Assembly: GCA_047601445.1 (NCBI GenBank) | Contig: JASGJH010000001.1 | Coordinates: forward strand, 5,984,001 to 6,048,000 | Length of the DNA stretch: 64,000 nucleotides | DNA from: Myxococcales bacterium | Lineage (GTDB): Bacteria > Myxococcota_A > Polyangia > Polyangiales > DASUME01 | Direction of reading: 5' to 3' | In this document: piece by piece, positions 42,416 through 58,834 of the stretch | Layout: every line of letters starts with the position of its first letter | Position numbering within the stretch: the first letter of the stretch is position 1 | Position numbers and translations under genes: made by a program | The notes under the pieces: model-generated | Database searches by the model: none | What the model was told of the DNA's origin: nothing | The model's input: only the letters and a program-made list of their open reading frames with translations

Positions 42416-43717
42416 ATGCATCCTTACGGTACGAGCTCGTACGAGCCGACGGAGCTCCACACGGAGTCGGTCGACGCACGCAGTTCGGTGCTGGAGCCGA
42501 CTTCCGTCGAAGGCAAGGGAGAGCGCGCCGCGCGCGTGCTCATCGAAACCATTCGAGCGCTCTCGGGGACGCGCAGCGCCGCCGCCATCGCCGACGTGGT
42601 GCGCAAGGCTGCGGCCAAGCTGGTCGGGGCCGATGGCACCTCGTTCCTGCTGCGAGAAGGCGACGCCGTGGTGTGCGTGGACGAGGAATGCATCGAGCCG
42701 AGCTGGCGCGGCAAACTCTTTCCGCTCAGCGAGTGCGTCGCGGCCACGGTGCTCGAGCACGGCGAGCAAATCGCCATCCCGGACCTGTACGCCGATCCTC
42801 GCATCAACCAGGACAACTTCCGGGGAACCAACGTGCGTGGGCTGGTGTTGACCCCTGTGCGCGGGAATCCCTGTGTTGCCCTCATCGCCGCTTTCTGGTC
42901 GCACACCCATGGGCCCAGCGAGGGTGAGCTCCTCCTGCTCCAGGACCTCGCGGACGCCACCGCGGTGGCCACCGAGAACGCGGGGCTCCACGCCGAGCTC
43001 GAACGCAGAGTCGAGCGCCGCACGCTCGAGCTGCGGGACGCCAATCGGGACCTCGAGGCCTTCTCGTACAGCGTCGCCCACGACCTGCGCGCGCCGCTGT
43101 CGGCCATGTTGGTCACGCGCTCCATCCTGGAGCGCAGCTACGGGTCGGCGCTGGACAGCCACGGGGTCAAGCTTCTGCGCGACATCGAGCGCACCGGCAA
43201 GCGCATGGGCGAGCTCATCGGTGGTCTCCTGCAGTTCGCGCGTTGCGCGCGCGTGGAGCTGTCACGGGAGGCGGTCGACCTCTCCGCGCTCGCCGCCGGC
43301 GTGGTGATGGCGCTGCGTCAACAGAACCTATCTCGGCAGGTGCACGTGCGCATCGAGCCCGGTCTCCGCGCCAACGCCGACTCCACGCTGATGGAGGTGG
43401 TCATCGCGAACCTGCTCAACAACGCATTCAAGTACACCAGGGAGCGCCCGCTGGCCGAGATTCACGTGGGCCAAATGCGAGAGCTCGGCGGCCATGCTTT
43501 CTACGTGCGCGACAACGGCGCGGGCTTCGACATGGCGTCCTCCGCGGAGCTGTTCTTGCCCTTCAAGCGCCTGCACCCGTCCCATCTCTTCGATGGGCAC
43601 GGCGTGGGGCTCGCCACCGTGTCGCGCATCATCGGCAAGCACGGCGGACGTGTGTGGGCGGAGTCGCAGCCCGGCGTCGGAGCGACCTTCTACTTCACGC
43701 TGCCGAGTCTCGACTGA
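42416..43717 (+). CDS. GAF-domain sensor histidine kinase
   Basis: GAF (IPDLYADPRI), LEAFSYSVAHDLRAPL, NLLNNAFKYT, VRDNGAGFDM, GHGVGLATV. Confidence 0.95.
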   Translation: MHPYGTSSYEPTELHTESVDARSSVLEPTSVEGKGERAARVLIETIRALSGTRSAAAIADVVRKAAAKLVGADGTSFLLREGDAVVCVDEECIEPSWRGKLFPLSECVAATVLEHGEQIAIPDLYADPRINQDNFRGTNVRGLVLTPVRGNPCVALIAAFWSHTHGPSEGELLLLQDLADATAVATENAGLHAELERRVERRTLELRDANRDLEAFSYSVAHDLRAPLSAMLVTRSILERSYGSALDSHGVKLLRDIERTGKRMGELIGGLLQFARCARVELSREAVDLSALAAGVVMALRQQNLSRQVHVRIEPGLRANADSTLMEVVIANLLNNAFKYTRERPLAEIHVGQMRELGGHAFYVRDNGAGFDMASSAELFLPFKRLHPSHLFDGHGVGLATVSRIIGKHGGRVWAESQPGVGATFYFTLPSLD

Positions 43718-43718
43718 A

Positions 43719-44396
43719 TCAGCTCACTTCCAGGGGCTCGGGGGTCTCTTCGCGCTTCTCCAGGCTGCGCTCCTTGGGGCGCACTTCCGCAGGCGGCGCA
43801 GGCTCGCTGACGGGTGGCGGGGCATCGACCTTTGTCGGCTCGGTGGCCTTCGCTGGCGGGCTCGAAGGCTTCCTACGCGGCCCGAAGGCTTCCACCAGGC
43901 TGCGCGGGATGACGCGGTTCTTGGCGACGACCACGGTACAGCCATCGGGCACGCTCTGCGACACCACGCAGTTGGCTCCCACCTTGACGCCGTTTCCCAG
44001 ACGAATCTCGCCGATCACACGGGCGCCCGCGTAGATGTCCACGTCGTCTCCCAGCTCGGGGAAGACCAGGGAATTGGCGTCCATCCCCAGCGTGACCTCC
44101 TGGAAGATCAGACAGTTCTTGCCGATCTTACAGCCGCCGATCAGGACGTTGCGTGGGTGAATCAAGGTCAGACCGGGGCCGATCTCCGCATGCGGGGAGA
44201 TGTCCAACTGGTAGACGATGTGGAAGTACTGGTTGAACAGCTTCTGCGGCGCGAGCACCAGGAGACGCCCGGGGCCCTTGAGCGTTCGGCCCCAGCGCCC
44301 CCAGCGATAGGTGACGGTCGCCCAGAAGCCGGGCTCGAAGTACCACGGGTTCGTGTAACGTGCGGTGTCTGCGCGTAGATCGCTGAGGATAGTCAT
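43719..44396 (-). CDS. Serine-acetyltransferase-like left-handed beta-helix acyltransferase
   Basis: Hexapeptide repeats ISPHAEIGPGLTLIH, IGKNCLIFQEVTLG, LGDDVDIYAGARVIG, VGANCVV; Pro-rich tail. ATG overlaps the fabG stop. Confidence 0.88.
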   Translation of the reverse strand: MTILSDLRADTARYTNPWYFEPGFWATVTYRWGRWGRTLKGPGRLLVLAPQKLFNQYFHIVYQLDISPHAEIGPGLTLIHPRNVLIGGCKIGKNCLIFQEVTLGMDANSLVFPELGDDVDIYAGARVIGEIRLGNGVKVGANCVVSQSVPDGCTVVVAKNRVIPRSLVEAFGPRRKPSSPPAKATEPTKVDAPPPVSEPAPPAEVRPKERSLEKREETPEPLEVS

Positions 44397-45178
44397 CCGC
44401 TGAAGCCTCCGTCGACGACGATGGTTTGGCCGGTCATGTAGAGAGGCGCCTCGTGCGCGAGAAACCCTACCAGCGTGGCGACCTCCTCGGAGGTTCCGAG
44501 CCGCCGCATGGGAATGCGTGTGAGGGTCTGCGCGCGTTGCTCCTCGCTCTGATACTTGAGCATGTCCGTATCGGTGAAGCCGGGCGCCACTGCGTTCACG
44601 GGGATGCCCCAGGCGGCGAGCTCCTTGGAGAGCGAGCGCGTGAAGCCGATGATGCCGGCCTTGGCGGTCGAATAGTTCGTCTGGCCCGGGATGCCAATCA
44701 GGCCCGAGACCGAGGTAATGTTGACGATGCGTCCGGTGCGCTGGCGAATCATCTGTTTGGTGCTCGGTCGCGTGGTGCCGAACAGACCGTACAGACTCGT
44801 TTCGAGCACGCTGGACCAATCGGACTCGCTCATCATCGGCAAGAGCTTGTCCTGAGTGATGGCCGCGTTGTTCACCAGCACGTCGAGGCGTCCCGTGTCT
44901 TTGACGGTGTCCTCCACGAAGGCCGTGCAGGCCCGCGCGTCCCGCGAGTCCACGCGGGTGGCCCTGGCGCGACCGCCGCGCGCCATCACTTCTTGCGCGA
45001 CCTCGGCCGCTTTTTCCTCGCTGTTGACATAGGTGAAATGGACGCTGAAGCCGAGCTCCGACAGCCGCATCACGACGGCGCGTCCAATGCCACGTGAGCC
45101 GCCGGTGACGATGGCGACGCGTGGCCTTTCGAGTTCAACTTCCGTTCCGAGCGACGACTCGACCACATGATCAGTCAT
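44393..45178 (-). CDS. fabG: 3-oxoacyl-ACP reductase (FabG-like SDR)
   Basis: TGGSRGIG, LVNNAAIT, GQTNYSTAKAG, VNAVAPGFTDTDM; AGGAG RBS. No acpP/fabD/fabF neighbours. Confidence 0.88.
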   Translation of the reverse strand: MTDHVVESSLGTEVELERPRVAIVTGGSRGIGRAVVMRLSELGFSVHFTYVNSEEKAAEVAQEVMARGGRARATRVDSRDARACTAFVEDTVKDTGRLDVLVNNAAITQDKLLPMMSESDWSSVLETSLYGLFGTTRPSTKQMIRQRTGRIVNITSVSGLIGIPGQTNYSTAKAGIIGFTRSLSKELAAWGIPVNAVAPGFTDTDMLKYQSEEQRAQTLTRIPMRRLGTSEEVATLVGFLAHEAPLYMTGQTIVVDGGFSG

Positions 45179-45468
45179 GTCTGAACCGCTTCTCCTGCGA
45201 AGGGGGAACAGCCACGGCGAACGAACACTGTCTGCACATCTTTGCGCATTGCTGCGCAGGCTGCACGAAACGTCATGGTAGTCACTTTTCGATGGACCAT
45301 GTCAAACTCGCCAGTCGAAAACTCGTGCAAAAATGCCAGGGATTCGCAATTTTCATACGCAAGCTTCGCGCCTCATCCCCGACCGGTGACGCCGCGCGCA
45401 GCGAGCGCGCGAGACTCAGCAGAAGCAGAGCAGACTCGATTGAGGACAGCTAAGTCAGGAGAATCTCC

Positions 45469-46476
45469 ATGAGTGATTTGGTGAATCGTCAGTGGCTGCT
45501 TGCGCAACGCCCCAAGGGGGTTCCCAGCAGCGACGACTTTCGGTGGCACGAGGGAACGGTCGCGCGTCCCCAGGAGGGAGAGGTACTGGTGAAGAACCTG
45601 TATCTCGCGTGTGAACCGACGCAGCTCGGCTGGGCGGCCGGTGAAACCTACTTGCCCGCGGTGGGGCTCGGCGAAGTGATGCGCTCGTTGGGAGCAGGAG
45701 AAATCCTCGAGTCTCGTGATCCCGCATTCAAGGTCGGCCAGCGCGTGCAGGGACTATTGGGCTGGCAAGACTTCGCCACGGTGTCGGCGTCCGGTCACTA
45801 CCCAATGCTCCCCCTGTTGTCGGACGCACCGCTCGAGGCCTCGCTGTCGATTCTGGGCAACACCGGCATGACCGCCTACTTCGGGATGCTCGACATCGGG
45901 AAACCCAAGCCCGGTGAGACCGTGGTGGTCTCGGCTGCGGCAGGCGCCACGGGATCGGTGGCGGGGCAAATCGCCAAAATCCAGGGCTGCCGGGTGGTGG
46001 GCATCGCGGGAGGCGAGGACAAGTGTCGCTACCTGGTGGAGCAGCTGGGGTTCGACGCGGCCATCGACTACAAGCGGGAGAACCTGCTCTCGCGTTTGAG
46101 GCAGACCTGTCCGCAAGGCATCGACATCTACTTCGACAACGTGGGGGGCAAGACGCTGGACGCCGCCTTCCTCTACCTGGCATTGCGCGGGCGCGTCGTG
46201 CTCTGCGGCGCCATCTCTGGCTACGCCGACCCAGGCGCGATGACCGGACCGCGCAACTACCTGAGGCTGCTGCGACAGCGCGGCCGTATGGAGGGCTTCA
46301 TCGTGCTCGACTACCTGCACCGCGCCGAAGAGGCCATGTTGGCCCTAAGAGACTGGCACGAGCGCGGGCTGCTCAAGGACCGCGTGGACGTGCTGTCCGG
46401 GCTGGAGCAGGCGCCGGTCGCACTGAGGCGGCTGTTCACCGGGGAGAATCAGGGCAAGCAGCTGGTGCGGTTGTAG
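45469..46476 (+). CDS. NADP-dependent alkenal/enone reductase (PTGR/CurA-like MDR)
   Basis: NRQWLLAQRPKG, GMTAYFGM, VVVSAAAGATGSVAGQIAK, YFDNVGG, GENQGKQLV; AGGAG RBS. Confidence 0.94.
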   Translation: MSDLVNRQWLLAQRPKGVPSSDDFRWHEGTVARPQEGEVLVKNLYLACEPTQLGWAAGETYLPAVGLGEVMRSLGAGEILESRDPAFKVGQRVQGLLGWQDFATVSASGHYPMLPLLSDAPLEASLSILGNTGMTAYFGMLDIGKPKPGETVVVSAAAGATGSVAGQIAKIQGCRVVGIAGGEDKCRYLVEQLGFDAAIDYKRENLLSRLRQTCPQGIDIYFDNVGGKTLDAAFLYLALRGRVVLCGAISGYADPGAMTGPRNYLRLLRQRGRMEGFIVLDYLHRAEEAMLALRDWHERGLLKDRVDVLSGLEQAPVALRRLFTGENQGKQLVRL

Positions 46477-46542
46477 ACGCGGGCACTCGCCCTTGGGCAG
46501 GAAAGAGTGAGGTCCGCACTTTGGCTTGCGGACCTGAAAGCG

Positions 46543-47667
46543 TCAGGTCTGGTCAGCGAGGGGAACGTAGACGGAGAAGCGGGTGCCCTTGCCCATCTCG
46601 CTGGTCATGTGAATGACGCCGCCGACCTCCTCCACAATACGCCTGGAAATCGCGAGGCCAAGCCCCGTGCCGCCGTCGGCCTTGGTGGTGAAGAACGGAT
46701 CGAAGACCTTCTCCAGGTCGGACTCGGCGATGCCGCAACCGTTGTCCTGGACATCGAGTCGGGCCTGCCTGCCCTCCTTGCGCAGCGAGATGTCCACGTT
46801 GTTTTCCACGCGCGGGCGCTCGGGCAGGGATTGAAGCGCGTTCACCAACAGGTTCAACACTACCTGGCCCAGCTTGGTGCGTGAGCCGCGCACGGGCGGC
46901 AGCGGGTCGAGCTCGCACCTCACTTCGGCTCGCATCCGCAGCTCGCCGCGCAGGCTAGCGAGTGTCAGCCGAATGACATCGTTGAAATCCGCGTGGTTCT
47001 CGGTGTCGCGGCGGCGCTGGCTGAGCTCGACTCCGCGCGTGATATCGGTGATGCGCTGGACGCCTTCCCGTGCGTCGGCCAACAATAGCGTTAGCTGGCG
47101 CAGGGCTTCCGAGAGCGGGGACGCCGAGGGTAGGCCTTGGAGCAAGCCCGCTACCTCTTCGCGCATCAGCGATAGATTGGTCGCCACGGCCGTGATGGGG
47201 TTGCGGAGCTCGTGGGCGATTCCGGCCGCAACCACGCCGAGCGCGTAGACACGCTCGGTCTCACGCAGGCGCAGCTCGAGGGCCTTGATGCGTTGGCTCG
47301 TTCGGTACACGGAGAGCGCTTCGGCGACGTTCGCGCGCAGCTCTTCGATGACCCACGGCTTGCGCAGAAAGCGCTGCACCTGACCGCGGTTGATGGCGGC
47401 CGTGGCGTCGTGAAAGTCGGAGTACGCCGTGATTAGAATGCGCACGACGTCGGGCCACTCGGTCCGGGTCCGCTCCAGGAGCTCGACGCCCGTCATGCCG
47501 GGCATCCGCTGGTCCGCGATGACGAGCGCGAACTGCTGCTTGCGCATCAGCTCGAGAGCCTGGGCACCGCTGCTGGCGGTGACGATCTTGAAGTCGCGCC
47601 CGCAGGCCGCTTGAAAGACCACCAGGTTCGACTCGTCGTCGTCTACGTACAGAATGGTCTCAGTCAT
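46543..47667 (-). CDS. Receiver-histidine kinase hybrid (PhcR-like architecture)
   Basis: [11 protein letters not shown]...[10 protein letters not shown]...KPW, then [30 protein letters not shown]. No DNA-binding domain. Confidence 0.92.
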
Positions 47668-47936
47668 TGGTTGGCCTCAGGTGCAAGCCCGATTGCACCC
47701 CTGGGTGGCAGGGGAGAATACCCAGAGCACGGCACTTCATTCCCGGATTCTTTGCTCGCTTCGCCCATCGGCTGTCATCCACTCATTCTACCTACGTCCA
47801 CGTCGTTCACCGCTGGGAATGATTGCACAAAGTTGATCATCCGTGCGGCTCAGGGTGACAGAACCTGAATCCCGTCCAAGGACACCATAGGCGCGTTTCG
47901 CTTTCGTTTCCCTCACGTCACGCGCTCCTCGTTTGG

Positions 47937-47999
47937 TCGTCCATTCGGGCCGTCAGGTTCCCTTCGTCCGTTTCGGCTCGTCAGGTCGCCGTCCATCGG
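47937..47999. repeat. Three imperfect direct repeats in the divergent intergenic region
   Basis: TCGTCCATTCGGGCCGTCAGGT, TCGTCCGTTTCGGCTCGTCAGGT and CGTCCATCGG, with a period of about 26-27 nt. Confidence 0.6.
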
Positions 48000-48517
48000 A
48001 CCAGCGCTGCGCGCGCCGACGCGTGTGCGGCGAGCGAGCAAGTGTCTCCGACTCAGTTCGAAAGGTACCGCGGAGCGCACTGCGCGCGGATCGAAGATCA
48101 ACACGAACGCGTCGCTGCATCACGCGCGAATGATGACCGCTGGTCGATAGACTCATATGGGCCTGTCGTGCAGCGATGCAGACTAAAAATCACCACATTG
48201 CGCGCGAAATACAGCCTGGATTTTCAGCTCCTACGCGAACGTCACTGCAAAGCGTTAGTCTGATCTCCACTCTGTTGATCCAAAACTAATCGCCAACGTT
48301 GACTTCCACTAATCAGCAAGCCACCGTTGTTCGGCACCAGCGAGTCTGCGACCGCAGCAAGCGTTCGCGAGAAGTCGCGCCAACCCTGAGCTGTTCACGT
48401 CTGCGCTGAAGGCATGCGCAGCGCTCGGTTGAGCAATGGATGGCATTCGTCGGGCTTTGTCGAAGCTGCGACGCAATGTCGGTGGCGCTTCCACGCTCGC
48501 AAGAAGGACCTCTACAG

Positions 48518-50107
48518 ATGAACAATTCGCCGGCTTCCATGGACGTTCAGCAGGCGCCGAGGGCAACCGCGCCCGCCGAACGCATCTCCGGCATCGCGCC
48601 GGTGCCCCCCGTTGTCCGCAACTATCAGGATCTCGAGGGAGGCGTCGGCCGGGAGGTCAACTTCCGGCCCCCTCGCTACCAGTCGGCGGAGTTCGGACCG
48701 GTTGGCGCAGTGGTCAACGCGGTGGTGGACGGCAAGAGCTACACCTGCGTGCTGCACGACGTATCGCAGAACGGCGTCGCCTTCGAATGGCACGAGGTGG
48801 GGCGTCTGGAGGTCGGTGCGACCATCTCCGTGCTTACCGTGAGCTTCGATCGGCACGAAGCCTATCGTGGGGCCGCGCGCGTGGGGTCCGTGCGCGACGC
48901 CGACGGCTATCAGCTGGTTGGGGCTTCATTCCTCGACACGCTGATGAATATCGACGACGTGCTCCAGTTGCGCGACGTCAAGGCCTGGAGCGGCGCCGGA
49001 CCGGGTCTCGCGCTCAAGGAGCGCCCCTGGCGGTTTGCCGGGCATGAACGCTTCAAGTCGCTGGTGGCGGAGATGCGTCTGCTGCTGCTGGACGCCGAGC
49101 AGCAGCTCGGTGAGCTCGAGGCCTCGCTGCCCTGGCACGTCGTCCACGGTGGCGACCAGGACCTGCCCGCGAGAGACGCTCTCATCCACCGCCTGCGCAC
49201 CGAGGTCGTGGACGAGATCATGACGGTCTACAACGAGATCGGGTCCATGCGGGATCCGGTGAGTCCGGCCGAGCATCGGGCCATGAAGGAGTACTCGATT
49301 CGTCAGCTCAACGATTTGCTCATGCAGGCATCGTGGCTGCGACGGGCACGTGACAAGCCGCTTGGTTATCCTGGCGACTTCGAGCTGATGAACGGCATTT
49401 ATGGCATCGGCGCGTTCGGCAGCTTTGCGGGCAATACCTTGTTCGCCAAGACCTTGAACTTGTTCCTGGTCAACACGCCAGCTGCGCGCGCGGTGGCCGA
49501 GCGCAAGAACGTCGTGGCTGCACGACTCTCCAAGCTGCTCGACGAGTGCAAGCCGAGCGGCCGACCCATCCGCGTGCTGTCGCTGGCGGCGGGACCGGCC
49601 CAGGAGACCTATGAACTGCTCTCGACCCGCGAACACTTCCCGACGCCGGTCGAAATCGTACTTTTCGACCAGGACAAGCGCGCCCTCTCCTTCGCCTACG
49701 GGCGCTTCAAGCAGCTCCCGGCGGTCAAGTACGGTCAGGTCCGCATCGTCTACCTCCACGACACCATCAAGCGCTTGCTGAGAGATCCCCGTCTATTCGC
49801 GTCGTTCGGCGAGTTCGACATGATCTTCTCGTGCGGCTTGTTCGACTACCTGCCGCAGGCCACGGCCACCACATTGACTACGAACCTCTACGCGAACCTG
49901 GCGTCCGGGGGCTCCCTCTACGTCGGCAACCAGACGATCAAGACCACCAGCCGCTGGCTGATCGAGTTCCTGGCCGACTGGTACCTCATCTACCGCGAGC
50001 ATTCCGAGATGCTGGCCTTCGCCAGTGCAGGCGTACCCACGGCCGACATCTCGATCCTCGAGGAGCCGACCGGCATCAACCCGTTCGTCGTCCTGCGCCG
50101 TCCCTGA
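48518..50107 (+). CDS. PilZ-like N-terminal domain plus class I SAM-dependent methyltransferase, PhcB-like signal synthase candidate
   Basis: N-terminal FRPPR...LHDVSQNGVAF (RxxR / DxSxxG). RARDKPLGYPGDFELMN and TLFAKTLN, as I recall them from PhcB-type proteins. SAM motifs RVLSLAAGPAQE, LFDQD, FDMIFSCGLFDYL, LASGGSLYVGN, DWYLIYR. AGAAGGA RBS. Confidence 0.75.
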   Translation: MNNSPASMDVQQAPRATAPAERISGIAPVPPVVRNYQDLEGGVGREVNFRPPRYQSAEFGPVGAVVNAVVDGKSYTCVLHDVSQNGVAFEWHEVGRLEVGATISVLTVSFDRHEAYRGAARVGSVRDADGYQLVGASFLDTLMNIDDVLQLRDVKAWSGAGPGLALKERPWRFAGHERFKSLVAEMRLLLLDAEQQLGELEASLPWHVVHGGDQDLPARDALIHRLRTEVVDEIMTVYNEIGSMRDPVSPAEHRAMKEYSIRQLNDLLMQASWLRRARDKPLGYPGDFELMNGIYGIGAFGSFAGNTLFAKTLNLFLVNTPAARAVAERKNVVAARLSKLLDECKPSGRPIRVLSLAAGPAQETYELLSTREHFPTPVEIVLFDQDKRALSFAYGRFKQLPAVKYGQVRIVYLHDTIKRLLRDPRLFASFGEFDMIFSCGLFDYLPQATATTLTTNLYANLASGGSLYVGNQTIKTTSRWLIEFLADWYLIYREHSEMLAFASAGVPTADISILEEPTGINPFVVLRRP

Positions 50108-50152
50108 GGGCGGGCGCGCCCGCGCAGCGAGCCGATCACAGGAGCAGAGACC

Positions 50153-51133
50153 ATGCCGACGAAGCAACTCGTCCAGGTCGCCTCACGCCTGGTCAGCAGA
50201 CTGGCCGGCTCCAACGGGCGTCGTGTAGACCGTCCGTCCGAGCAACTGCCCGGCCGAGGGGCGAGCACCCCAGAAGGCGTCCGGGTCACCTATCGCAAGA
50301 TGGAGTTCGAGTTCGAGAGCCGGGGCTTCGAGCGCCGCTGGCACAGCGACAGCACCTTCATCAGCGGCTTCTGGAACGCGCTCTCGAGCGCGTTTCCGGC
50401 CGGGGAGAGGTTCTTCATCGACGCGGCGAACTCGGTGCGCGACCGCATCGACGACCCCGTCCTGCGCGAGGAGCTGAGCGAGTTCCTGCGCCAGGAGAGC
50501 CACCATATCGTCCAGCACAAGAAGTTCAATCGCATGGTCGCGGAGCAGGGCTTCGACATGAAGACCTACGAGGCGCGCTATGCGATTCCGCTCCAGGCGG
50601 CCGCCGCCCAGTTGAAGCCGATGCAGAAGATGGCGGTGACCGTCGCGCTGGAGCACTTCACGGCCGTCTTTGCCCACCAGGTGCTGACCAATCCTGCAGT
50701 GATCGGCGGCGCCGACCCCTGCGTGTTGGCGCTCTGGTCGTGGCATTTCATGGAAGAGCTCGAGCACAAGGCCACCTGCTTCGAGGCCTATGAGCGTCTC
50801 GGGGGCAGCTACGTCACTCGGGTCAAGGCCGCGGGTCCGGCTTGGCAGCTCTACCTTCTGCTCGCTGTCCGCAGCGCGCTCAGCATGCTGCGCGAAGACG
50901 GGCGCAGCCTGGACCCGCGGGAGTACGCCCGAGGGCTCTGGTACCTGTTCGGTCCGAGCGGCTTCGTGACGAGTATGATTCCGGGCCTACTTGACTACTT
51001 CCGCCCAGATTTCCACCCATGGCAGTTCGACGACAGCAACTTGATCGCCAACTGGCAGCTGCGTAACAATCCCCACGTCAGGAGCATGCAGGTGTTCAGC
51101 CGACAGCCGGAGGTCCAGACGGCCTCCGCTTGA
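50153..51133 (+). CDS. 'Predicted metal-dependent hydrolase' family protein (ferritin-like di-metal motifs)
   Basis: FPAGERFFI, QESHHIVQH, LEHFTA, WHFMEELEHK, YFRPDFHPW; AGGAG RBS. Confidence 0.88.
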   Translation: MPTKQLVQVASRLVSRLAGSNGRRVDRPSEQLPGRGASTPEGVRVTYRKMEFEFESRGFERRWHSDSTFISGFWNALSSAFPAGERFFIDAANSVRDRIDDPVLREELSEFLRQESHHIVQHKKFNRMVAEQGFDMKTYEARYAIPLQAAAAQLKPMQKMAVTVALEHFTAVFAHQVLTNPAVIGGADPCVLALWSWHFMEELEHKATCFEAYERLGGSYVTRVKAAGPAWQLYLLLAVRSALSMLREDGRSLDPREYARGLWYLFGPSGFVTSMIPGLLDYFRPDFHPWQFDDSNLIANWQLRNNPHVRSMQVFSRQPEVQTASA

Positions 51134-51208
51134 GCAGGCGTCGCAGGCGGTGCTCGGCGGGCGTGTTGCCCGTGTCGACTGGCTTGGCCCGCTTCGACGG
51201 AGACGTAA

Positions 51209-53911
51209 ATGGCTGAAGTATCCCCGGTCCTCAAAGCCGCTGAGGATAGTCCCGAGCTGGAAGCTCGCTGGTCCGTGTGGCTGCTCACACGAAACCGCCG
51301 CGCGACCATCATGTGCCTCTGGCTCAACGCGGTGCTCTACCCGCTGTTCGGCGTGCTCGACTACTTCGTGGCGCCGCGCGAGTGGCTGTCGCTGCTGTGG
51401 GGCACCCGGTTCCTGGTCGCCATCGTCACGCTGACGATGTTTCGGATCGTGCGCGGACCGCTGTTCGACCGCCACTCCAACGTGCTCTCCGCGGCCTATC
51501 AGGTGCTGATCTCCTGCGGCATCAGCTTGATGACCGTGATCTTCGGTGGACTCGCGTCGTCTTATTACGCGGGTCTGAACCTGGTGATGCTGGGTGCCGG
51601 CCTGTTGTTCGTGTGGCCGCGCTCCATCGTGCTCACCACTCACGCAGCGATCGTCGCGTCGTTCATCCTGCCCAACTGGATCCTCGGCCGCACCGGCGAT
51701 GCCTTCAACTCGATCACCAACCTGTTCTTCCTGATCTCCACGGCCTGCATCGCCATGGCCGGACAGCTGGTCGCCTATCGCGTCAACCGCGAGCAGCTCT
51801 CCGCCATGCTGTTGATCGAGTCCACCACGGCCAACCTCGAGCGCGCGCACGTGAAGTTGCAGCAGCTCGACAAGTTCAAGTCCGAGTTCTTCGCCAACAT
51901 CACCCACGAGCTGAAGACGCCGCTCACGATGATCCTGGCCCCGCTCGAGCTGATGCTGCAGGGCGAATTCGGCAAGATCACGGAGACCCAGCGGGCCTCC
52001 CTCGACTCCATGCTGCGCAGCGGGATCAAGCTGCTCAAGCTGATCGGCAACCTGCTCGACCTGTCGAGGATGGATGAGTCGCGACTGCGTCTGCAGGTGG
52101 CCGAGCACGACCTCGCGGTGTACCTGCGGGACCTGGTTGCGCAGGTGCATTCGCTGGCCGGCCGCAAGGGCATCGAGCTCAGCTTCGAGACCAGCTGCGA
52201 GAGGACCATGGTCCACTGCGACCTGGAGCGGCTCGAGCGCGTGTTCGTGAACCTGCTGTCCAATGCGGCCAAGTTCACACCGGCTGGCGGCAAGATTCGG
52301 GTCTCGCTGGTGGACGCCGGCGACCGCGCGCGCGTCTCGGTGAGCGACACGGGCATCGGCTTCCCGCAGGACATGGCCGAGCGCATCTTCGAGCGCTTCG
52401 TGCAGGTGGATATGGCCGGTACGCGTAAGTTCGGCGGCACCGGCATCGGCCTGGCCCTGGCCAAGGAGCTGATCGGGCTGCACGGCGGCACCATCAGCGC
52501 CCGCAGCGAAGTGGGCGCCGGAGCGACCTTCACGGTGGAGCTCTTGAAGGACCGCGAGCACTTCGACCCCGAGCGCGTCGACCGGCGCGCGCGGCGCGCT
52601 GACCTGCTGGACGGCAATCGCGAGACCGACCGCGGCATCGGCGAGTGGGAAGTGGAGACCAAGGCGCGCTTCCGCTTCATCGACATCGACGAGGCCACCG
52701 ATCAGCGCATCGTTCAACGCGACCCCGACGAGCACGAGCGCTCGCAGAGCGTGCTGGTGGTGGACGACACCCCGGACGTCATCCGCGTGATCTACCTGGC
52801 CCTGCGCAACCAGTTCCGCGTGCTGGCCGCGCCCGATGGCGAGAAGGGCTTCGACCTGGCGGTGAGGCACCTGCCGAGCCTGATCATCACCGACCTGATG
52901 ATGCCCGAAGTGGACGGCATGGAGTTGAGCCGACGGCTGCGCCAGGACCCCCGCACCAAGCACATCCCCATCGTGATGCTCACGGCCCGTGACCACGTGG
53001 ACGAGCGCACCGCGGGCATGGACTCGGGCATCAACGCCTACCTGACCAAGCCGTTCGCGGCCAAGGAGTTGCTCTCGACGGTGCGCGGGTTGGTGCGCAT
53101 CCAGGAGACCAACGCGGACCTGGTGCTGACCCACAGCATGGACTCGCTGCAGACCATCGCCGGCGGCCTGGCCCACGAGATCAACAACCCCCTGAACTAC
53201 ATCCGGAGTGCACTCGCCATGATCCAGAGCGACGGCGAGCACATGCTCTCGATCGCCAAGGAAGGTGGCTTGAGCGGCGACTCCCCGGCGATGGAGCCGC
53301 TCTCGAGCCGCATGATGAAGATGTTCCAGGTGGCCGACACGGGGCTGCGCAAGATCGGCTCGACCGTGGAGTTGATGCAGCGCTACTCCCGCGAGGGTTA
53401 CTCGCGCACCATGCAGGCCATCGACGCCTTCGCGCTGACCCGCGACGTGGTGTCCATGCTGGAGGGGGTCGCCCAGCGCACCATCGAGCTGAGCTTCGAG
53501 GGCGAGGGCAGCGTGGAGTGCGTGCCGGACGAGCTGAGCCAGGTGCTCACGAACCTGGTGCAGAACGCCATCGATGCCACTCCCGCGGACGGGACCGGCA
53601 ACGTGCAGGTACGCGGTAGCTACGAGGGCGGCACCTTCGTCTTCTCGGTGCGCGACAATGGCCACGGCATTAGCCCGGAGGACCGAGCCAAGATCTTCAC
53701 GCCCTTCTACACCACCAAGGACGTGGGCAAGGGCATGGGTCTCGGCCTAACCATCGTGCGGCGCGTGGTCACGGCCCTGGGGGGCACCGTCACGCTGACG
53801 AGTCAGGTGGGGAAGGGCACCGAGTTCATGCTGCGCATCCCCTGCAAGCGGGCGCTGCTGATGACCACCAACGAGGCGGGCCAGACGACCTTCGAGGACG
53901 TCACGGCATAG
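51209..53911 (+). CDS. Membrane-bound hybrid sensor kinase (~6 TM, HisKA, HATPase, REC, HisKA, HATPase), PhcS-like
   Basis: Closely spaced TM segments (LFGVLDYFVAP, YYAGLNLV). H-box 1 FANITHELKTPL, receiver VLVVDD...TDLMMP...KPF, H-box 2 GGLAHEINNPL, two ATPase domains. Confidence 0.93.
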   Translation: MAEVSPVLKAAEDSPELEARWSVWLLTRNRRATIMCLWLNAVLYPLFGVLDYFVAPREWLSLLWGTRFLVAIVTLTMFRIVRGPLFDRHSNVLSAAYQVLISCGISLMTVIFGGLASSYYAGLNLVMLGAGLLFVWPRSIVLTTHAAIVASFILPNWILGRTGDAFNSITNLFFLISTACIAMAGQLVAYRVNREQLSAMLLIESTTANLERAHVKLQQLDKFKSEFFANITHELKTPLTMILAPLELMLQGEFGKITETQRASLDSMLRSGIKLLKLIGNLLDLSRMDESRLRLQVAEHDLAVYLRDLVAQVHSLAGRKGIELSFETSCERTMVHCDLERLERVFVNLLSNAAKFTPAGGKIRVSLVDAGDRARVSVSDTGIGFPQDMAERIFERFVQVDMAGTRKFGGTGIGLALAKELIGLHGGTISARSEVGAGATFTVELLKDREHFDPERVDRRARRADLLDGNRETDRGIGEWEVETKARFRFIDIDEATDQRIVQRDPDEHERSQSVLVVDDTPDVIRVIYLALRNQFRVLAAPDGEKGFDLAVRHLPSLIITDLMMPEVDGMELSRRLRQDPRTKHIPIVMLTARDHVDERTAGMDSGINAYLTKPFAAKELLSTVRGLVRIQETNADLVLTHSMDSLQTIAGGLAHEINNPLNYIRSALAMIQSDGEHMLSIAKEGGLSGDSPAMEPLSSRMMKMFQVADTGLRKIGSTVELMQRYSREGYSRTMQAIDAFALTRDVVSMLEGVAQRTIELSFEGEGSVECVPDELSQVLTNLVQNAIDATPADGTGNVQVRGSYEGGTFVFSVRDNGHGISPEDRAKIFTPFYTTKDVGKGMGLGLTIVRRVVTALGGTVTLTSQVGKGTEFMLRIPCKRALLMTTNEAGQTTFEDVTA

Positions 53912-54001: not shown

Positions 54002-54697
54002 TCAAAGCCCTGCGTAGACTGCGCGCACGTCGTCGTCGTCGTCGATGGCCTGCAGGAAGGCCTCGACTTCAGCTCGCTTCTCGTCGTCCAGGCTGACGGG
54101 GTTCTTGGCGACCCAGATCAAGTCCTGCGAGGAAAGCGTCCAGCCACGGGCCGTCAGCGCGCGTCCGACGGCGTCGAGGTCGGCGGGTTCGGTGAGAAAG
54201 CGTGAGTCGCCGTCTTCGCCCGGCTCCACTTCCTGGGCTCCGGCTTCGATGGCGGCCTCCTCGGGGTCTTCGCCGCTGGCGGGCGGGCTGGCCTCGATGG
54301 CGCCCCGGCGGAGGAAGTCCCAGGACACCGAGCCCGAGGCGCCCAGCTGGCCCTTGCGGAACAGGATGCGCATGTTGGGGGCGGTGCGGTTCTTGTTGTC
54401 GGTGAGGCACTCCACGATCACCGGCACCTGATGCGGCGCGAAGCCCTCGTAGACGACCGTCTCGAAGGTCGCGGCGTCATCCAGCAGGCCGGCGCCCTTT
54501 TTGATGGCGCGCTCCAGGGTGTCGCGGGTCATCGACGCCTTCTTGGCCGCTTCCACGGCCAGACGCAGACGCGGGTTCATCGTCGGGTCGGGGCCGCCCT
54601 TGGCGGCGATCATGATTTCCTTGGCAAGCTTGGTGAAGAGACGCCCCTTGGCGTCTGCTGCTTGCGCGCGGCCCTTGGCTTTCCACTGTGCACCCAT
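54002..54697 (-). CDS. yebC: YebC/PmpR family protein
   Basis: [44 protein letters not shown]. Confidence 0.95.
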
Positions 54698-54907
54698 AGG
54701 GCGCTGGATTTAGCGCATGGTGCCGAGGGAGGTCGAGCGACAACTCGGGGGCCCGTACCCAACTGTGGCGACGCCTACATGGCGGGCCACCTGCAATACA
54801 CTGAAGCCCGGCCCTCCGTGGGTGTAGCGAACCTCGCGGAGGGGTGGTCCCAGCGCGGCTTTGCCGCGATGGGCGGGGAGGGCGTGCGCCCTTCCCGTGA
54901 AAAGAGC

Positions 54908-55006
54908 TTACTTGCCGGCCGCCTTTTCCTTCTTCTTGGCCTTCTTCTCCTTCACGGAGAGCTTGGGCTTGTTGTTGTTCTTGGGCCGCTCTTGTCCTTT
55001 GGCCAT
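54908..55006 (-). CDS. 32-aa Lys-rich small protein
   Basis: GAGGAGG RBS 5 nt before ATG; MAKGQERPKNNNKPKLSVKEKKAKKKEKAAGK; GC-ending codons; hairpin downstream. Confidence 0.72.
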   Translation of the reverse strand: MAKGQERPKNNNKPKLSVKEKKAKKKEKAAGK

Positions 55007-55190
55007 GTCGTCCTCCTCGGTGTCTGGAAGCTGGGAATTAATCTGCTTGTAACACACCCGATCGAGGGGCCCCTGTCCAAAAAGCGCGCTGCCTTTGAGC
55101 CGTGCGAGCTCACGGAGTACGTTGTGCGTGCGTTGTCCCGGGACATCGCGGCGGGTCTCCGGCCCGCGAGTCTTCTGCGAAAGGCCGAGC

Positions 55191-55856
55191 GTGCGAGGCG
55201 CATCAGGGATCCAGGCAAAGCGTTGGGCGGGTGTGTTGTCGGTGTGCCTCCTGGCCGTGGGCTGCGCGCGCAACATGAAGGTTCCAGAGAAGGTCGCGGG
55301 CAACCCGGTGATGAACGCGCAGCGCGAGGGCGGGCTCAAGGAGAACGAGCTGAGGCTCGGCGGTGCGGTGGCGAGTCAGATCGAGCGCAATTGGAGTCGC
55401 CCGCTGGGGCGTGGCCTGGTCTCGTTCGAGAAGGCGCCCGAGGAAACCACGCTGAAATTCGCCTTCAAGGAGGGGCAGGTGGCGCTCTCGGGGGGCTGTG
55501 TCGAGCAACTGCGGACCAACCTGATGGGGCTCAAGGATCCCAAGGTGTCGCTCGAGTGCAGCTGCAAGGACGGCGAGACGCTCAAGGGGCAGCTCAAGCT
55601 CGAGCAGTACCAGGGCAAGGCGGAGCTCGGTGGCGCGAACAGCTACCAGGTGTACGGCGTGCACACCACGACCAGCGGCAAGAAGCGGAACGAGGTGCTG
55701 GGCTACTGGTTCTTGAGCAAGGCGGGCGAGGGCGCCATCGAGCTCAAGAACGACGGGCGCGCTTGGTTGCCGCCGACCTTGAGCGCCGAAGAGCGTCCGA
55801 CCCTGTTGTGCCTGTACTCGGCGCTCCTGCTGTATCGGCCGAGCGAGGCGAGATAG
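55191..55856 (+). CDS. Hypothetical lipoprotein
   Basis: Lipobox LLAVG|C after a basic/hydrophobic leader, strongly GC3-biased codons. Start inferred. Confidence 0.75.
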   Translation: MRGASGIQAKRWAGVLSVCLLAVGCARNMKVPEKVAGNPVMNAQREGGLKENELRLGGAVASQIERNWSRPLGRGLVSFEKAPEETTLKFAFKEGQVALSGGCVEQLRTNLMGLKDPKVSLECSCKDGETLKGQLKLEQYQGKAELGGANSYQVYGVHTTTSGKKRNEVLGYWFLSKAGEGAIELKNDGRAWLPPTLSAEERPTLLCLYSALLLYRPSEAR

Positions 55857-55880
55857 AGCGGCTGCACCGAATCGCCGGCT

Positions 55881-57677
55881 TCACAGCGGCCAGACGCCGT
55901 GGCTCTGGAGTGGGGTCCACTCCGGCTCCACCGGGATGGCCACGCTGAACGTGGTGCCCTTGCCGGACTCGCTCTCGAACCACACGTCGCCGCCGTGGGC
56001 CTTCACGAGCTCGCGGGCCAGGGAGAGACCCAGGCCGAGGCCGCCGATGCGCTTGCCCGAGGGCTCCTGGATCTCGCGGAAAGCCTGGAAGAGTGCCTCC
56101 TGATCGGCCTCGCGGATGCCAGCGCCGCGGTCCACCACGTCGACGCGCAGGTGGCGCACCTGGGGGCCGGGTGGGCCGTTGGCCACGCGGGCCACGAGAC
56201 GGATGGTGCCGCGCTCCATGGCGTCGATGGCGTGGCTGAACAGGCCCACCACGGCCTGCACCACGCGATCGGCGTCCACATAGACCGCAGGCAAGCCGGG
56301 CTGGATGTCGGCTTCGATCTCGAGCGGGCGATCTTCGATCATGCGGCGGCCGTCGCTGACCGCCTGGTTGAGGATATCGGCGGCCGGGGTCAGGCGTCGA
56401 CGCAGGGCGAGGCGGCCGGCTTCGAGGCGCGCCGAGTCGAGGATGTTGGTCACCAGGCGCAGCAGGTCGCGGGCGCTGCGCGTGATCATTTGAATGCTCT
56501 CGCGTTGTTCGGGTGTGACCGGGCCCTCCGTACCGCTCGAGATCAGCACCGCGAAGCCCAGGATGGAGTTGAGTGGACTGCGCAGGTCGTGGCTCATGGA
56601 CGCCAGGAATTGTGTGCGCAGGCGCTGGACCTGCTCCATGGCGAGGCGACCCTCGCGCTCTTTCTGACGCATCTCGTCGAAGCGCTGCGCGAGCTCGGAG
56701 AGCGAGGCTGCCAGGCGCTGCCCCGCTTGCGTGTGGGCGATGCGCGCAAAGGCGGTGACCTCTTGCTGGATCGGCGCGTCGCTGGTGTGCATGCGCTGGA
56801 TCTGGGCGGTCAGCGCGCGCAGGTCGCGCGCGAGCTGTTCGCCCAGGCGGCGCGCGATGATCCAGGCCACCACCACGCCCGCCACGATGAGCAGCAGGGC
56901 GAAGATGCCCGCCACGAGATCGAGCGCGAGGGAGAGGTCTCCAACCTGGAGGTTCGGGGCCACGCGCGTACGCAGCGCCACCAGGTGCGAAGCCAGGACC
57001 ACCACCGCCGAGATGCCGACCACGGCCACCGGCAGGGTCAAGGTGATGGCGAGGCGATAGCTCAGGTGCTGACGGACCTCGAGCGTGATGTCGTTGGGGT
57101 GCAGGCGGCCCAGCCAGCGCCACACGATGCTGCGATACAGCACGATACAGGGCATCAAGCCGGCGGTGGCCACGGCGATGGAGAGCAGGTCGGCGGACCA
57201 GCGCGACCAGCCGTCGAGGCCGGAGATGGAGACCACGCCCAGGGCATCGAGCACCGGCACCAGCTGCGTGCAGGCGGTGTTGAGCAACACGCCGCGCTCG
57301 GGCCAGTGGAAGGCCTTGGCGATCACGCGTGGATCGGGCCGCGGCCCTTCTGGCAAGTCGCGCGGTCCCCGCAGGAGCATGAGGTAGAGCGGGCGCATGC
57401 CGCGGACCCCGCGCAGGATCACCAGCGAGAGCACCACGCCGCCGACCAAGCCCTGCACCAGCGACAGCCGCAGCATGGCCTGCGCCTCCACGCCCGGCAG
57501 CGCCAACACGAAGGCCGCGCCGAGCAGCGTGAACAGACCGAGCGTCGCGCCCACGGCGCAGGTGGCCAGGCCGAGCAGCAGGATCATGCGGCCCGGGGAG
57601 GTGGGCAGCGTCTCGAGCGACGGCACGATACTCAGGCCTCTACGTTGCGAGGCGCGTTGCGACGGAAGGCCGTCCAT
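55881..57677 (-). CDS. Multi-TM sensor histidine kinase
   Basis: About 6 TM segments, FLASMSHDLRSPLNSILGF, GLGLGLSLARELV. ATG overlaps the upstream stop. Confidence 0.92.
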   Translation of the reverse strand: MDGLPSQRASQRRGLSIVPSLETLPTSPGRMILLLGLATCAVGATLGLFTLLGAAFVLALPGVEAQAMLRLSLVQGLVGGVVLSLVILRGVRGMRPLYLMLLRGPRDLPEGPRPDPRVIAKAFHWPERGVLLNTACTQLVPVLDALGVVSISGLDGWSRWSADLLSIAVATAGLMPCIVLYRSIVWRWLGRLHPNDITLEVRQHLSYRLAITLTLPVAVVGISAVVVLASHLVALRTRVAPNLQVGDLSLALDLVAGIFALLLIVAGVVVAWIIARRLGEQLARDLRALTAQIQRMHTSDAPIQQEVTAFARIAHTQAGQRLAASLSELAQRFDEMRQKEREGRLAMEQVQRLRTQFLASMSHDLRSPLNSILGFAVLISSGTEGPVTPEQRESIQMITRSARDLLRLVTNILDSARLEAGRLALRRRLTPAADILNQAVSDGRRMIEDRPLEIEADIQPGLPAVYVDADRVVQAVVGLFSHAIDAMERGTIRLVARVANGPPGPQVRHLRVDVVDRGAGIREADQEALFQAFREIQEPSGKRIGGLGLGLSLARELVKAHGGDVWFESESGKGTTFSVAIPVEPEWTPLQSHGVWPL

Positions 57678-58834
57678 CAGAGCGCCCCCTGACCGTGGGC
57701 CGGGGTTGGCTCCATGCGCACGGTGGGCACCGGCAGCATCACGTTGAACGTCGAACCGCGCTCGAGTTCGCTCTCCACCTCGACCCGGCCCCCGTGCAGG
57801 TTCACCAGCTCGCGCACGATACTCAGACCGAGTCCGGAGCCCCGCCGCGAGAGCTCGGAGGTGCCCACCTGCGTGAACTCCTCGAACAACAGCGGCAGGT
57901 CCTCCGCCGCGATGCCCACACCCGTGTCGCGCACGCCGATGTTCACCTCGCGTCCGTTGAAGCGGGCGAACAGGCGAACCTCGCCGCGCGCCGTGAATTT
58001 CAGGGCATTGGTGCCTAGATTCATCACGATCTGCCGCAGGCGCACGGGGTCGGCTTCGAGCTCGGGCATGAAGTCGGGACAATCCACCACGATGGCCACC
58101 GGCTTGCCCTGACGCTGTCCCTCGAGGATCGACGCGACTTCGTCGAGCACCTGGCGCACCTCCACCGTCTCGACATTGAGCTGGATGCGACCCGAGGCCA
58201 GCGCGGACATGTCGAGCACGTTGTTGAACAAGGCGAGCAGATGCTCACCCGAGGCGCGGATCATGCGCAGATCCTCGCGCTGGCCCTCGGTCAACGGCCC
58301 CTCGATCTCGGCCAGCAACACCTCCGTGAAGCCGAGCAGCGCGTTGAGCGGGGTGCGCAATTCGTGGCTCACGGTGGTGAGGAACTCGCCCTTGTAGCGG
58401 TCGGCCTCCTGGGCCTGACGGTGGGCAGCGCGCTCGCGCATGAGCTGCTCCACGTAGCCTCGTCGCAGTTGCTCGAAGGCTCGCGTCAGCGCGCCCACTT
58501 CGTCGAGGCTGCGGATAGCCACCGGTTCACCGAGGTCGCCTTGCTCGGCCACCGCGCGTACGCGGCGACTCACGAAGTGCGCGTCGCCCGAGACGTCGCG
58601 CGCGCTCAACCAGGCGGCGAGCACCGAGAGCGCCAGGAAGACGGCGCCGATGAGGGCCAGCGATGCCAGGAATGCACTGCGGGCCTCGTCGACGCGCCCG
58701 ATCTGCGCCAGCGCCTCCGGGATCGCTGCGAAGCGCAGGACTCCGAGCAGGGCGGTGGCGAGCAGCATCAACAGGCCGGCCCCGAGCACCACCATCACAC
58801 TGACGAACGAGAGGTGGGGTGTGCGCTCTTTCAT
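57677..58834 (-). CDS. 2-TM HAMP sensor histidine kinase
   Basis: HAMP (DEVGALTRAFEQL), FLTTVSHELRTPLN, NLGTNALKFT, GSGLGLSIV. Confidence 0.94.
   Translation of the reverse strand: MKERTPHLSFVSVMVVLGAGLLMLLATALLGVLRFAAIPEALAQIGRVDEARSAFLASLALIGAVFLALSVLAAWLSARDVSGDAHFVSRRVRAVAEQGDLGEPVAIRSLDEVGALTRAFEQLRRGYVEQLMRERAAHRQAQEADRYKGEFLTTVSHELRTPLNALLGFTEVLLAEIEGPLTEGQREDLRMIRASGEHLLALFNNVLDMSALASGRIQLNVETVEVRQVLDEVASILEGQRQGKPVAIVVDCPDFMPELEADPVRLRQIVMNLGTNALKFTARGEVRLFARFNGREVNIGVRDTGVGIAAEDLPLLFEEFTQVGTSELSRRGSGLGLSIVRELVNLHGGRVEVESELERGSTFNVMLPVPTVRMEPTPAHGQGAL

Follow-up and report, generated by a model that had tools for sequence, protein, structure and literature searches.

Genes of the locus

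The region from 43719 to 53911 of the window (the whole stretch of DNA that was analysed, 64,000 bp in length) contains seven genes, and ORF and domain searches confirmed the positions, strands and domains that the initial annotation had assigned to all of them. The left part encodes a hexapeptide acyl/acetyltransferase (43719-~44390, minus strand), for which the match in the domain search covers residues 153-307 only and the ORF as listed extends to 44819, overlapping fabG; a FabG-type SDR (44393-45178, minus strand; TIGR01830, 282 bits); and a CurA/LTB4-12-HD-type NADPH enone reductase recognized by a domain match (45469-46476, plus strand). A PhcR-like protein of 374 aa, composed of receiver, HisKA and HATPase domains (Pfam), is encoded on the minus strand at 46543-47667, divergently from the gene for a PhcB-like SAM-dependent methyltransferase of 529 aa, here called the synthase (48518-50107, plus strand; BLASTP to PhcB). 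The spacing of these two genes, previously given as about 850 bp, was measured as 850 bp between 47667 and 48518, and the intergenic region (47668-48517) is presumed to bear the promoters. An Rfam search of the region gave no match of note, inspection for ORFs revealed no convincing one, and a single weak sigma-70-like site was located inside a neighbouring gene.

The synthase gene is followed on the plus strand by genes for a PF10118 ferritin-like di-metal protein of 326 aa (50153-51133; Pfam) and a sensor kinase of 900 aa (51209-53911). The PF10118 gene lies within the operon, 46 bp from the synthase gene and 76 bp from the sensor gene, and AAGGA/AGGAG-like ribosome-binding sites are found upstream of 48518 and 50153. 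The sensor contains about six hydrophobic segments, a HisKA-HATPase unit, a receiver and a second HisKA-HATPase unit; these correspond to a PhcS-type multi-pass membrane sensor domain (residues 1-215, 51209-51853; hhalign), a first kinase core (51854-52708; Pfam), and a fused PhcR-like module with receiver, second HisKA and HATPase domains that forms the C-terminus (52709-53911; Pfam).

The protein encoded at 50153-51133 scored 254.9 bits with the PF10118 (Metal_hydrol) profile, for which the cut-off is 33.2; the database name of this family, "metal-dependent hydrolase", is itself a prediction. In 41 aligned sequences an E, ExxH, E, ExxH ligand pattern is invariant (E85, E115, H118, E167, E201, E202 and H205), as are H168 and H198. 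With two such E...ExxH ligand pairs, the label "di-metal" given earlier to this protein therefore holds. R2-like ligand-binding oxidases, RNR R2 and AurF/CmlI have a similar all-helical fold and E/ExxH pattern, but the fold matches found by Foldseek (R2lox, RNR-R2 and AurF) are weak, with E-values of at least 0.025 and TM scores of 0.41-0.53, and a sequence search of solved structures gave no match at E<=1. R2-like ligand-binding oxidases bind fatty acids.

Relation to PhcB, PhcS and PhcR

The Phc loci used for reference were L079 (C. necator), L089, L114 (R. chuxiongensis) and L040/L059 (Paraburkholderia). The roles of PhcB, PhcS and PhcR are covered in parts of PMC10653808 and PMC6989110, while passages of PMC2842291 put phcBSRQ of Cupriavidus at 56-75% identity to phcBSRQ of R. 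solanacearum and describe a Cupriavidus strain that apparently produces a form of 3-OH PAME.

PhcB and the synthase were aligned by BLASTP over residues 54-523 versus 2-457 (23% identity, E-value = 7e-33). When PhcB was used as the query against the whole 9.5-Mb genome, the 48518-50107 gene was the single match, and the synthase in turn had one match in each of three Burkholderiaceae genomes, at the phc locus. The kinship with PhcB that had been proposed for the methyltransferase is thus upheld by full-length homology and reciprocal single whole-genome matches, and many homologues of the synthase bear a PhcB-type product name in their source annotation. Both proteins have, in the same order, an N-terminal beta-barrel, a helical domain with the motif KPLGYxGD(F/Y)E, and a Rossmann domain. 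However, identities of the window's proteins to those of Phc are only 23-28%, and the synthase does not fall in the PhcB clade, where the initial annotation had required it to lie: a quick maximum-likelihood tree (49 rows, midpoint root only, with the Burkholderiales clade starred at 100) placed it apart from the PhcB proteins of Burkholderiales, in a distinct clade of Myxococcota. At 23-26% identity to PhcB and with this placement, its substrate may differ from that of PhcB. A literature search found no paper linking PhcB with myxobacteria.

The synthase comprises a disordered N-terminus, a PilZ-like beta-barrel (residues ~62-141, nt 48701-48940), a helical domain and a Rossmann methyltransferase domain, and its AF2 model (pLDDT 85.4) has the barrel at residues 64-138. 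The closest folds in Foldseek were those of SgvM, AprA MT2, PKS C-methyltransferase domains and PhzM, all of them small-molecule or natural-product methyltransferases; the Pfam match to class I methyltransferases was below threshold. Against the PilZ profile PF07238 the synthase scored 20.4-20.5 bits, under the cut-off of 22.5, and 42 of the 48 members of its family were matched by the PilZ HMM at E<=0.01 (best 2.8e-6). PilZ receptors of c-di-GMP carry a (D/N)xSxxG motif and, N-terminal of the barrel, an RxxxR motif. The DxSxxG motif is invariant in the family (D81, S83 and G86 in 48/48 sequences), whereas it is absent at the aligned position of Cupriavidus-type PhcB, and the reference PhcB has no PilZ match in Pfam. 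The canonical RxxxR is absent from the synthase; the 48-sequence alignment has in its place an invariant F49-R50-P51-x-R53 with RxxR spacing, and R45, present in 42 of the 48 sequences, gives RxxxxR.

The membrane domain of the sensor is alignable with that of PhcS, as had been suggested, at 98.7% and E = 3.4e-16 over 180 columns when 26 myxobacterial and 21 Burkholderiales PhcS-type domains were compared by hhalign. This relation is visible by profile comparison only: as a single-sequence query the PhcS membrane domain had no match in the whole genome at E<=1. The sensor's membrane domain has no paralogue in the genome. The first kinase core region aligns with PhcS over 40-445, and the second core is closer to the PhcS core than the first (E = 2e-21 versus 1e-14, the latter value including the membrane part). 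The sensor differs from that of Phc in carrying a second, PhcR-like receiver-kinase within the same 900-aa protein; this fused module has 24% identity with PhcR (E = 1e-17) and 30% with the receiver-kinase encoded on its own (E = 1e-42). Of 20 related loci, 19 have a corresponding module after the first kinase core, and in the 17 closer loci the two matches adjoin with no gap.

The PhcR-type fusion of receiver and kinase is common to both systems. The stand-alone protein (46543-47667) shares 28% identity with Cupriavidus-type PhcR over its full length (E = 3e-33) and is the best of 146 PhcR matches in the whole genome, which bears out the earlier view that it is related to PhcR. In the reverse search PhcR was the best full-length match in two of three reference genomes, both of Burkholderiaceae; in the third, a Paraburkholderia, the annotation gives a receiver-only regulator in the place of PhcR. 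Unlike in Phc, the stand-alone gene of the window is divergent, and PhcQ, which combines a receiver with a specific C-terminal domain, was not found: with PhcQ as the query, tblastn of the whole genome hit nothing but receiver domains, most strongly over residues 14-129 on the PhcR-like gene. The output of Phc runs through the LysR regulator PhcA. No DNA-binding output gene lies in the window's locus, nor was a conserved DNA-binding gene found across the related loci that were searched with the window's genes.

In Phc loci and myxobacterial relatives alike, the synthase gene is immediately 5' of the sensor gene, and in the window the two are co-oriented but separated by the PF10118 gene, which is likewise a difference from Phc. 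The linkage assumed in the initial annotation is conserved, beyond chance: the synthase is followed directly by the same sensor kinase in 29/29 loci of other genomes in the phylum, in 20/20 related loci read with 19-kb context (17 shared with the former set, and three more distant relatives), and in all six readable metagenome loci. In 16 of the 20 the pair is accompanied by a separate receiver-kinase gene alongside it. It is divergent, as in the window, in L145-L147, and the order synthase, sensor, receiver-kinase is kept in some relatives (L122, L123 and L139-L141). None of 34 genomes sampled from one large Myxococcota family (f21) had a phc-type circuit.

A candidate signalling circuit

We regard it as rather likely that the locus represents a Myxococcota-wide module distantly related to the phc signalling module of Ralstonia/Cupriavidus. 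As judged from sequence, the analogy to phc is one of true homology for the three core genes and goes beyond shared architecture. Of the phc-like system originally put forward, the homology of synthase, sensor and receiver-kinase and their linkage have stood, whereas the placement in the PhcB clade and the lipid-tailoring neighbours (see below) have not. Since the three genes are genuine, if distant, relatives of the core phc genes, the myxobacterium probably makes and senses a methylated lipid-like signal of its own. Judged by its homology and fold, the PhcB-like enzyme would use SAM to methylate a small, probably fatty-acid-derived carboxylate, and the PhcS-type membrane domain of the adjacent kinase would sense the product, in keeping with the invariant pairing and the homology of the sensor domain. 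From the domain order, the signal could then run through the kinase, receiver and kinase chain in one protein and also via the stand-alone PhcR-like receiver-kinase. The PilZ-like domain may let c-di-GMP or some other input gate synthesis, though its arginine motif is non-canonical.

A fuller scheme can be offered only tentatively, and as a whole we would sooner doubt than adopt it. Many Myxococcota might possess a dedicated phc-type cell-to-cell circuit based on a small molecule, in which a PilZ-bearing synthase, controlled by a second messenger, would produce a lipid methyl ester and a PhcS-type receptor, fused to its own PhcR-like relay, would read it, while a ferritin-like di-metal oxidase (PF10118), recruited into the operon in the window's lineage, would alter or destroy the signal. 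If true, it would be the first case in myxobacteria of a self-made, diffusible autoinducer of the phc kind.

Alternative readings and the neighbouring genes

The product of the synthase might instead be a cell-bound or intracellular methylated lipid, with the kinase acting as a sensor of membrane or metabolic state and no quorum sensing involved. The PilZ-like domain suggests control inside the cell, neither an export function nor a density-dependent output gene is present at the locus, and the failure of the PhcQ search would also fit. Fatty acid methyl esters, however, are membrane-permeant by general chemistry, which argues against such confinement. Moreover, the homologous characterised system signals by a diffusible, volatile methyl ester, according to parts of PMC2842291 and PMC6989110, and we consider an intracellular role unlikely. 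Much less probable still is a CheR-like protein methyltransferase acting on the partner kinase or another protein in an adaptation circuit. Such an activity is hinted at by the invariable adjacency of a kinase gene and by a CheR SAM-binding-domain match in Pfam, found at E<=0.01 in 28 of the 48 family members; but in the synthase this match is sub-threshold (23.3 bits versus a cut-off of 27) and is confined to a 44-residue part of the shared Rossmann core. Over its full length the synthase is homologous to PhcB, which methylates small molecules, its best fold matches are without exception enzymes of that kind, and the partner kinase has no MCP-type methylation helices in Pfam.

The initial annotation had counted extra lipid-tailoring enzymes among the parts of the system, and the whole 43719-53911 block might accordingly be read as one biosynthetic unit, in which fabG, the acyltransferase, the enone reductase and the PF10118 protein would modify the acyl chain of a novel autoinducer. 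All of these genes are physically adjacent, and for PF10118 the position inside the operon and the weak fold matches to fatty-acid-binding oxidases are in favour, as is L149, where a PF10118 gene closely precedes the gene of a synthase with 66% identity. A PF10118 protein and a 68%-identical synthase also both occur on 4722-bp contigs, which by guess are one shared contig. Nevertheless, fabG, the acyltransferase and the enone reductase were each found in 0/20 of the related 19-kb loci (E<=1e-8 and at least 50% coverage) and lie beyond the receiver-kinase gene, on other transcription units, and PF10118 was absent from the same 20 loci and from all of the 29. In L142, a 90%-identical relative, PF10118 is reduced to a 3' remnant of ~150 bp, while both the synthase and the sensor gene are intact up to where the contig ends. 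A single unit is thus improbable. From their distribution, the three lipid genes are unrelated neighbours and no conserved part of the system. By the same comparison the PF10118 gene is specific to this lineage, inserted between the synthase and sensor genes, and its di-metal product is a recent passenger or optional accessory rather than a core component. Counting the 50153-51133 gene, the genome contains 12-13 PF10118 paralogues.

Gene content of the region

Based on ORF, Pfam and NCBIfam analyses of the window, which lies within one 9.5-Mb contig (G000:C1:5984001-6048000), all seven genes of 43719-53911 were found as the initial annotation had described them. These are a CysE/WcaB-like hexapeptide acyltransferase (43719-~44390, minus strand), a FabG-type reductase (44393-45178, minus), a CurA/LTB4-dehydrogenase-type enone reductase (45469-46476, plus), a receiver-HisKA-HATPase protein of 374 aa (P0004, the relay; 46543-47667, minus), a SAM methyltransferase of 529 aa (P0001, the synthase; 48518-50107, plus), a PF10118 protein (P0002; 50153-51133, plus) and a kinase of 900 aa (P0003, the sensor; 51209-53911, plus). 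The sensor is composed of about six hydrophobic segments, a HisKA-HATPase core, a receiver and a second HisKA-HATPase core, while the synthase and the PF10118 protein were left without any family assignment by NCBIfam. The receiver-kinase and methyltransferase genes are divided by a gap of 850 bp; Rfam and promoter/terminator scans of this gap and of the operon gave results no better than chance, and a small-ORF search of the gap yielded no convincing ORF.

Two long ORFs without a Pfam match, 54431-55948 (plus, 505 aa) and 55899-57692 (plus, 597 aa), overlap YebC and a 733-aa kinase, which are real genes encoded on the other strand; both ORFs are probably artefacts of the high GC content.

Homology to PhcB, PhcS and PhcR

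In PMC10653808 and PMC6989110, PhcB is described as a methyltransferase that makes methyl 3-hydroxy-myristate or -palmitate, PhcS as a sensor kinase and PhcR as a receiver plus kinase. Reference proteins were reached by a tblastn search of plasmids with the synthase, which led to a locus in Paraburkholderia graminis (methyltransferase, kinase, response regulator, response regulator); its methyltransferase, used as a query, gave 80 loci at 64-92 % identity, distributed over Paraburkholderia, Telluria, several Ralstonia species and Cupriavidus, C. necator among them. The genes of locus L089 encode 463, 453, 377 and 333 aa, with the domains expected for PhcB, PhcS, PhcR and PhcQ. The record of L089 is titled Ralstonia pickettii strain RAL3, but in PhcB and in the N-terminus of PhcS this locus shares 98-99 % identity with C. 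necator (L079) and was therefore treated as Cupriavidus-type; identity to the other Ralstonia species is only about 54-70 %, and the record may be mislabelled at the genus level. According to PMC2842291, identity between the Phc proteins of C. necator and their counterparts in R. solanacearum GMI1000 is 56-75 %, and a Cupriavidus strain appears to produce a form of 3-OH PAME. In the P. graminis plasmid locus, the annotation gives the gene at the PhcR position (L040:8751-9155) as a response regulator of roughly 134 aa that lacks the kinase half, and a receiver-only match was seen at the same position in P. xenovorans.

The likening of the three proteins to PhcB, PhcS and PhcR in the initial annotation is supported by the comparisons below. 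The synthase aligned with PhcB over nearly its full length (residues 54-523 against 2-457, 23 % identity, E 7e-33), through the N-terminal barrel, the helical domain (KPLGYPGDFELMN vs KPLGYAGDYEMVN) and the Rossmann domain. A tblastn search of the whole genome with PhcB gave exactly one match, the synthase gene, and the reverse search of three Burkholderiaceae genomes gave exactly one match in each, located at the phc locus. Many homologues are labelled by their sources as [quoted passage not shown], which we take to be the KEGG name of PhcB, automatically assigned. In the AF2 model of the synthase (pLDDT 85.4, pTM 0.80), the N-terminal residues 1-49 are disordered, 64-138 form a beta-barrel, 178-343 a helical domain and 351-527 a Rossmann domain. 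Foldseek matched the model best to 3ocj, an uncharacterised protein of Bordetella, and to the small-molecule methyltransferases SgvM, AprA MT2, PhzM and PKS C-methyltransferase domains, and a sequence search of the PDB found a PKS C-methyltransferase domain only (E 2.8e-4).

Membership of the synthase in the PhcB clade itself was not recovered. In a quick maximum-likelihood tree (49 rows, midpoint root), from which L002 (no match) was left out, the PhcB proteins of Burkholderiales grouped in a single starred clade with a long stem, and the synthase branched beside L143 in a different clade, made up of Myxococcota; three distant Myxococcota loci (L139-L141) joined the side of the Burkholderiales, a placement weakly supported (86). 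The nearest homologues are in records named Polyangiales or Polyangiaceae, which makes a probable myxobacterium a reasonable source of the window. In public data the family numbers 4049 representatives of 50 %-identity clusters at E<=0.001, 2451 at 1e-10 and 343 at 1e-30.

The sensor aligned with PhcS over residues 40-445 against 38-449 (25 % identity, E 1e-14), although many other kinases of the genome outscore it against PhcS through their kinase cores. Because the PhcS membrane domain as a single query found no match in the genome at E<=1, a profile of 26 myxobacterial sensor N-termini was compared with one of 21 PhcS N-termini from Burkholderiales, and the two were matched with 98.7 % probability (E 3.4e-16, 180 columns), with common motifs including LDY..P and G..S.YY.GLNL. 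No paralogue of the membrane domain of the sensor was found in its genome. The first kinase core of the sensor is the one joined to this PhcS-like domain, and the C-terminal 400 residues are PhcR-like, matching PhcR at E 1e-17 and the relay at E 1e-42. The PhcS kinase core is closer to the second core of the sensor (53126-53848; E 2e-21) than to the first (51854-52549), which suggests that the sensor domain has been joined to a different kinase subfamily.

The relay aligned with PhcR from end to end (28 % identity, E 3e-33) and, at 9.4e-30, ranked first among the 146 matches to PhcR in the genome; of the full-length matches, the C-terminal half of the sensor came next (2.1e-17). In the reverse search of Ralstonia and Cupriavidus genomes, PhcR was the best full-length match of the relay, and matches confined to the kinase core scored slightly above it.

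Conserved linkage and accessory genes

Homologues of the synthase at E<=1e-10 were found in 89 of the 401 sampled genomes of the phylum. A kinase resembling the sensor lies directly 3' of the methyltransferase in all of the 29 best loci, and a full-length gene resembling the relay lies just upstream in 15 of them, three more being cut by the end of the locus. Twenty loci were taken with about 19 kb of context, 17 being the same places as among the best 29 and three being distant relatives. In all 20 of these context loci the synthase is followed by the sensor, a PhcR-like module follows the first kinase core in 19, and a separate receiver-kinase gene stands beside the synthase-sensor pair in 16 (11 upstream and five downstream); the five with the downstream gene have the order synthase, sensor, relay, as in phcBSR. 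Among metagenome contigs, from which L150 and L151 (28 % matches, methyltransferase domain only) were left out, the sensor follows the synthase in all six loci having downstream sequence, and L145-L147 have the divergent receiver-kinase arrangement of the window. The linkage of synthase and sensor is conserved in these loci. The synthase and its membrane sensor domain thus move together as a unit, with differing kinase modules behind the sensor domain.

The distant L139, L140 and L141 have the order synthase, sensor, receiver-kinase, receiver-kinase. Their synthases are 28-31 % identical to that of the window and the last gene is 43-50 % identical to the relay, so the receiver-kinase is better conserved than the synthase.

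The initial annotation had also placed a cluster of lipid-tailoring genes around the synthase, and this part fell away: fabG, the acyltransferase and the enone reductase, as well as YebC, were each present in none of the 20 context loci. The region is flanked by two more histidine kinases, a GAF-HisKA-HATPase protein (42416-43717, plus) and the 733-aa kinase (55881-58082, minus). For the former, no separate recurring neighbour was found in the 20 context loci, where its matches mostly lay within the kinase core of the sensor itself, apart from a half-length match in L122; for the latter, no match of at least 50 % coverage was found in the same loci.

The PF10118 gene was likewise rejected as a core component, being present in none of the 29 best and none of the 20 context loci and mostly deleted in L142. 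In this metagenome locus, the synthase of which is 90 % identical to that of the window, a gap of 330 bp between synthase and sensor (L142:2388-2718, against window 50950-51208) holds a remnant of about 150 bp from the 3' end of the same PF10118 gene; about 850 bp seem to have been deleted here, and the remnant implies that the insertion predates the split of the two strains and was then mostly lost in one. We read the PF10118 gene as a putative sporadic accessory of the closest subclade, outside the core. The genome holds 12-13 paralogues: 13 matches exceeded the cut-off, two of which are perhaps pieces of one gene, and 12 other places on G000:C1 (for example 3731546-3732286 and 4903276-4904019; loci L032-L038) carry copies 31-39 % identical to that of the window. 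In the short contig L149, a synthase (716-1159, 66 % identical) is immediately preceded by a PF10118 gene (1-411, 59 % identical), which is a second and different arrangement of the two families. P0132, a PF10118 protein, and P0006, a synthase, each come from a contig of 4722 bp and are, at a guess, on the same one.

The PF10118 protein of the window has an E, ExxH, E, ExxH pattern that is invariant in 41 sequences, its model is all-helical (pLDDT 90.9), and its best Foldseek matches, although weak (E >= 0.025), were R2-like ligand-binding oxidases, RNR R2, AurF and CmlI. Together these features support the description as a di-metal protein and make the database name "hydrolase" doubtful. A sequence search of the PDB with this protein gave no match.

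Departures from phc and possible signalling

To our knowledge, the phc system has been studied in Burkholderiales only. The PhcX study sought Phc orthologues in Proteobacteria only (PMC10653808), and for PhcB together with myxobacteria, Deltaproteobacteria or PilZ a literature search, which covered PMC12950752, found incidental co-occurrences only. Judged by homology and linkage at the sequence level, the synthase, sensor domain and relay are true Phc homologues and make up an operon that is conserved in another phylum. Of the circuit first proposed, the phc-like synthase, sensor and relay therefore stand, and the extended lipid-tailoring cluster does not. That the locus works as a diffusible signal circuit is a reading we somewhat favour. 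Myxobacteria are known for contact- and amino-acid-based signals, and should the product be a diffusible methyl ester, they would gain a defined chemical signalling pathway, open to genetics and GC-MS.

The locus differs from phc in several respects. Unlike PhcB, the synthase carries a PilZ-like domain: its barrel scored below threshold against the PilZ profile, and 42 of 48 relatives matched at E<=0.01. A DxSxxG motif is invariant in the barrel of the family, and the canonical RxxxR of PilZ is absent, with an invariant F-R-P-x-R instead. The alignment with Cupriavidus-type PhcB extends over this barrel, where PhcB has no DxSxxG at the aligned position, and the reference PhcB has no PilZ match in Pfam. 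Binding of c-di-GMP by the barrel is possible, and the PilZ-like domain would then couple a second messenger to signal output. Also unlike phc, the window sensor protein carries a PhcR-like module of its own, and the locus includes the lineage-specific di-metal gene. Finally, a search of the whole genome with PhcQ matched receiver domains only, and thus no PhcQ was found. A receiver domain outside the window (G000:C1:8171188-8171577), within an open frame of 229 aa, was the second-best match to the receivers of PhcR and PhcQ (40-45 % identity) and could be a downstream partner of the phc-like system.
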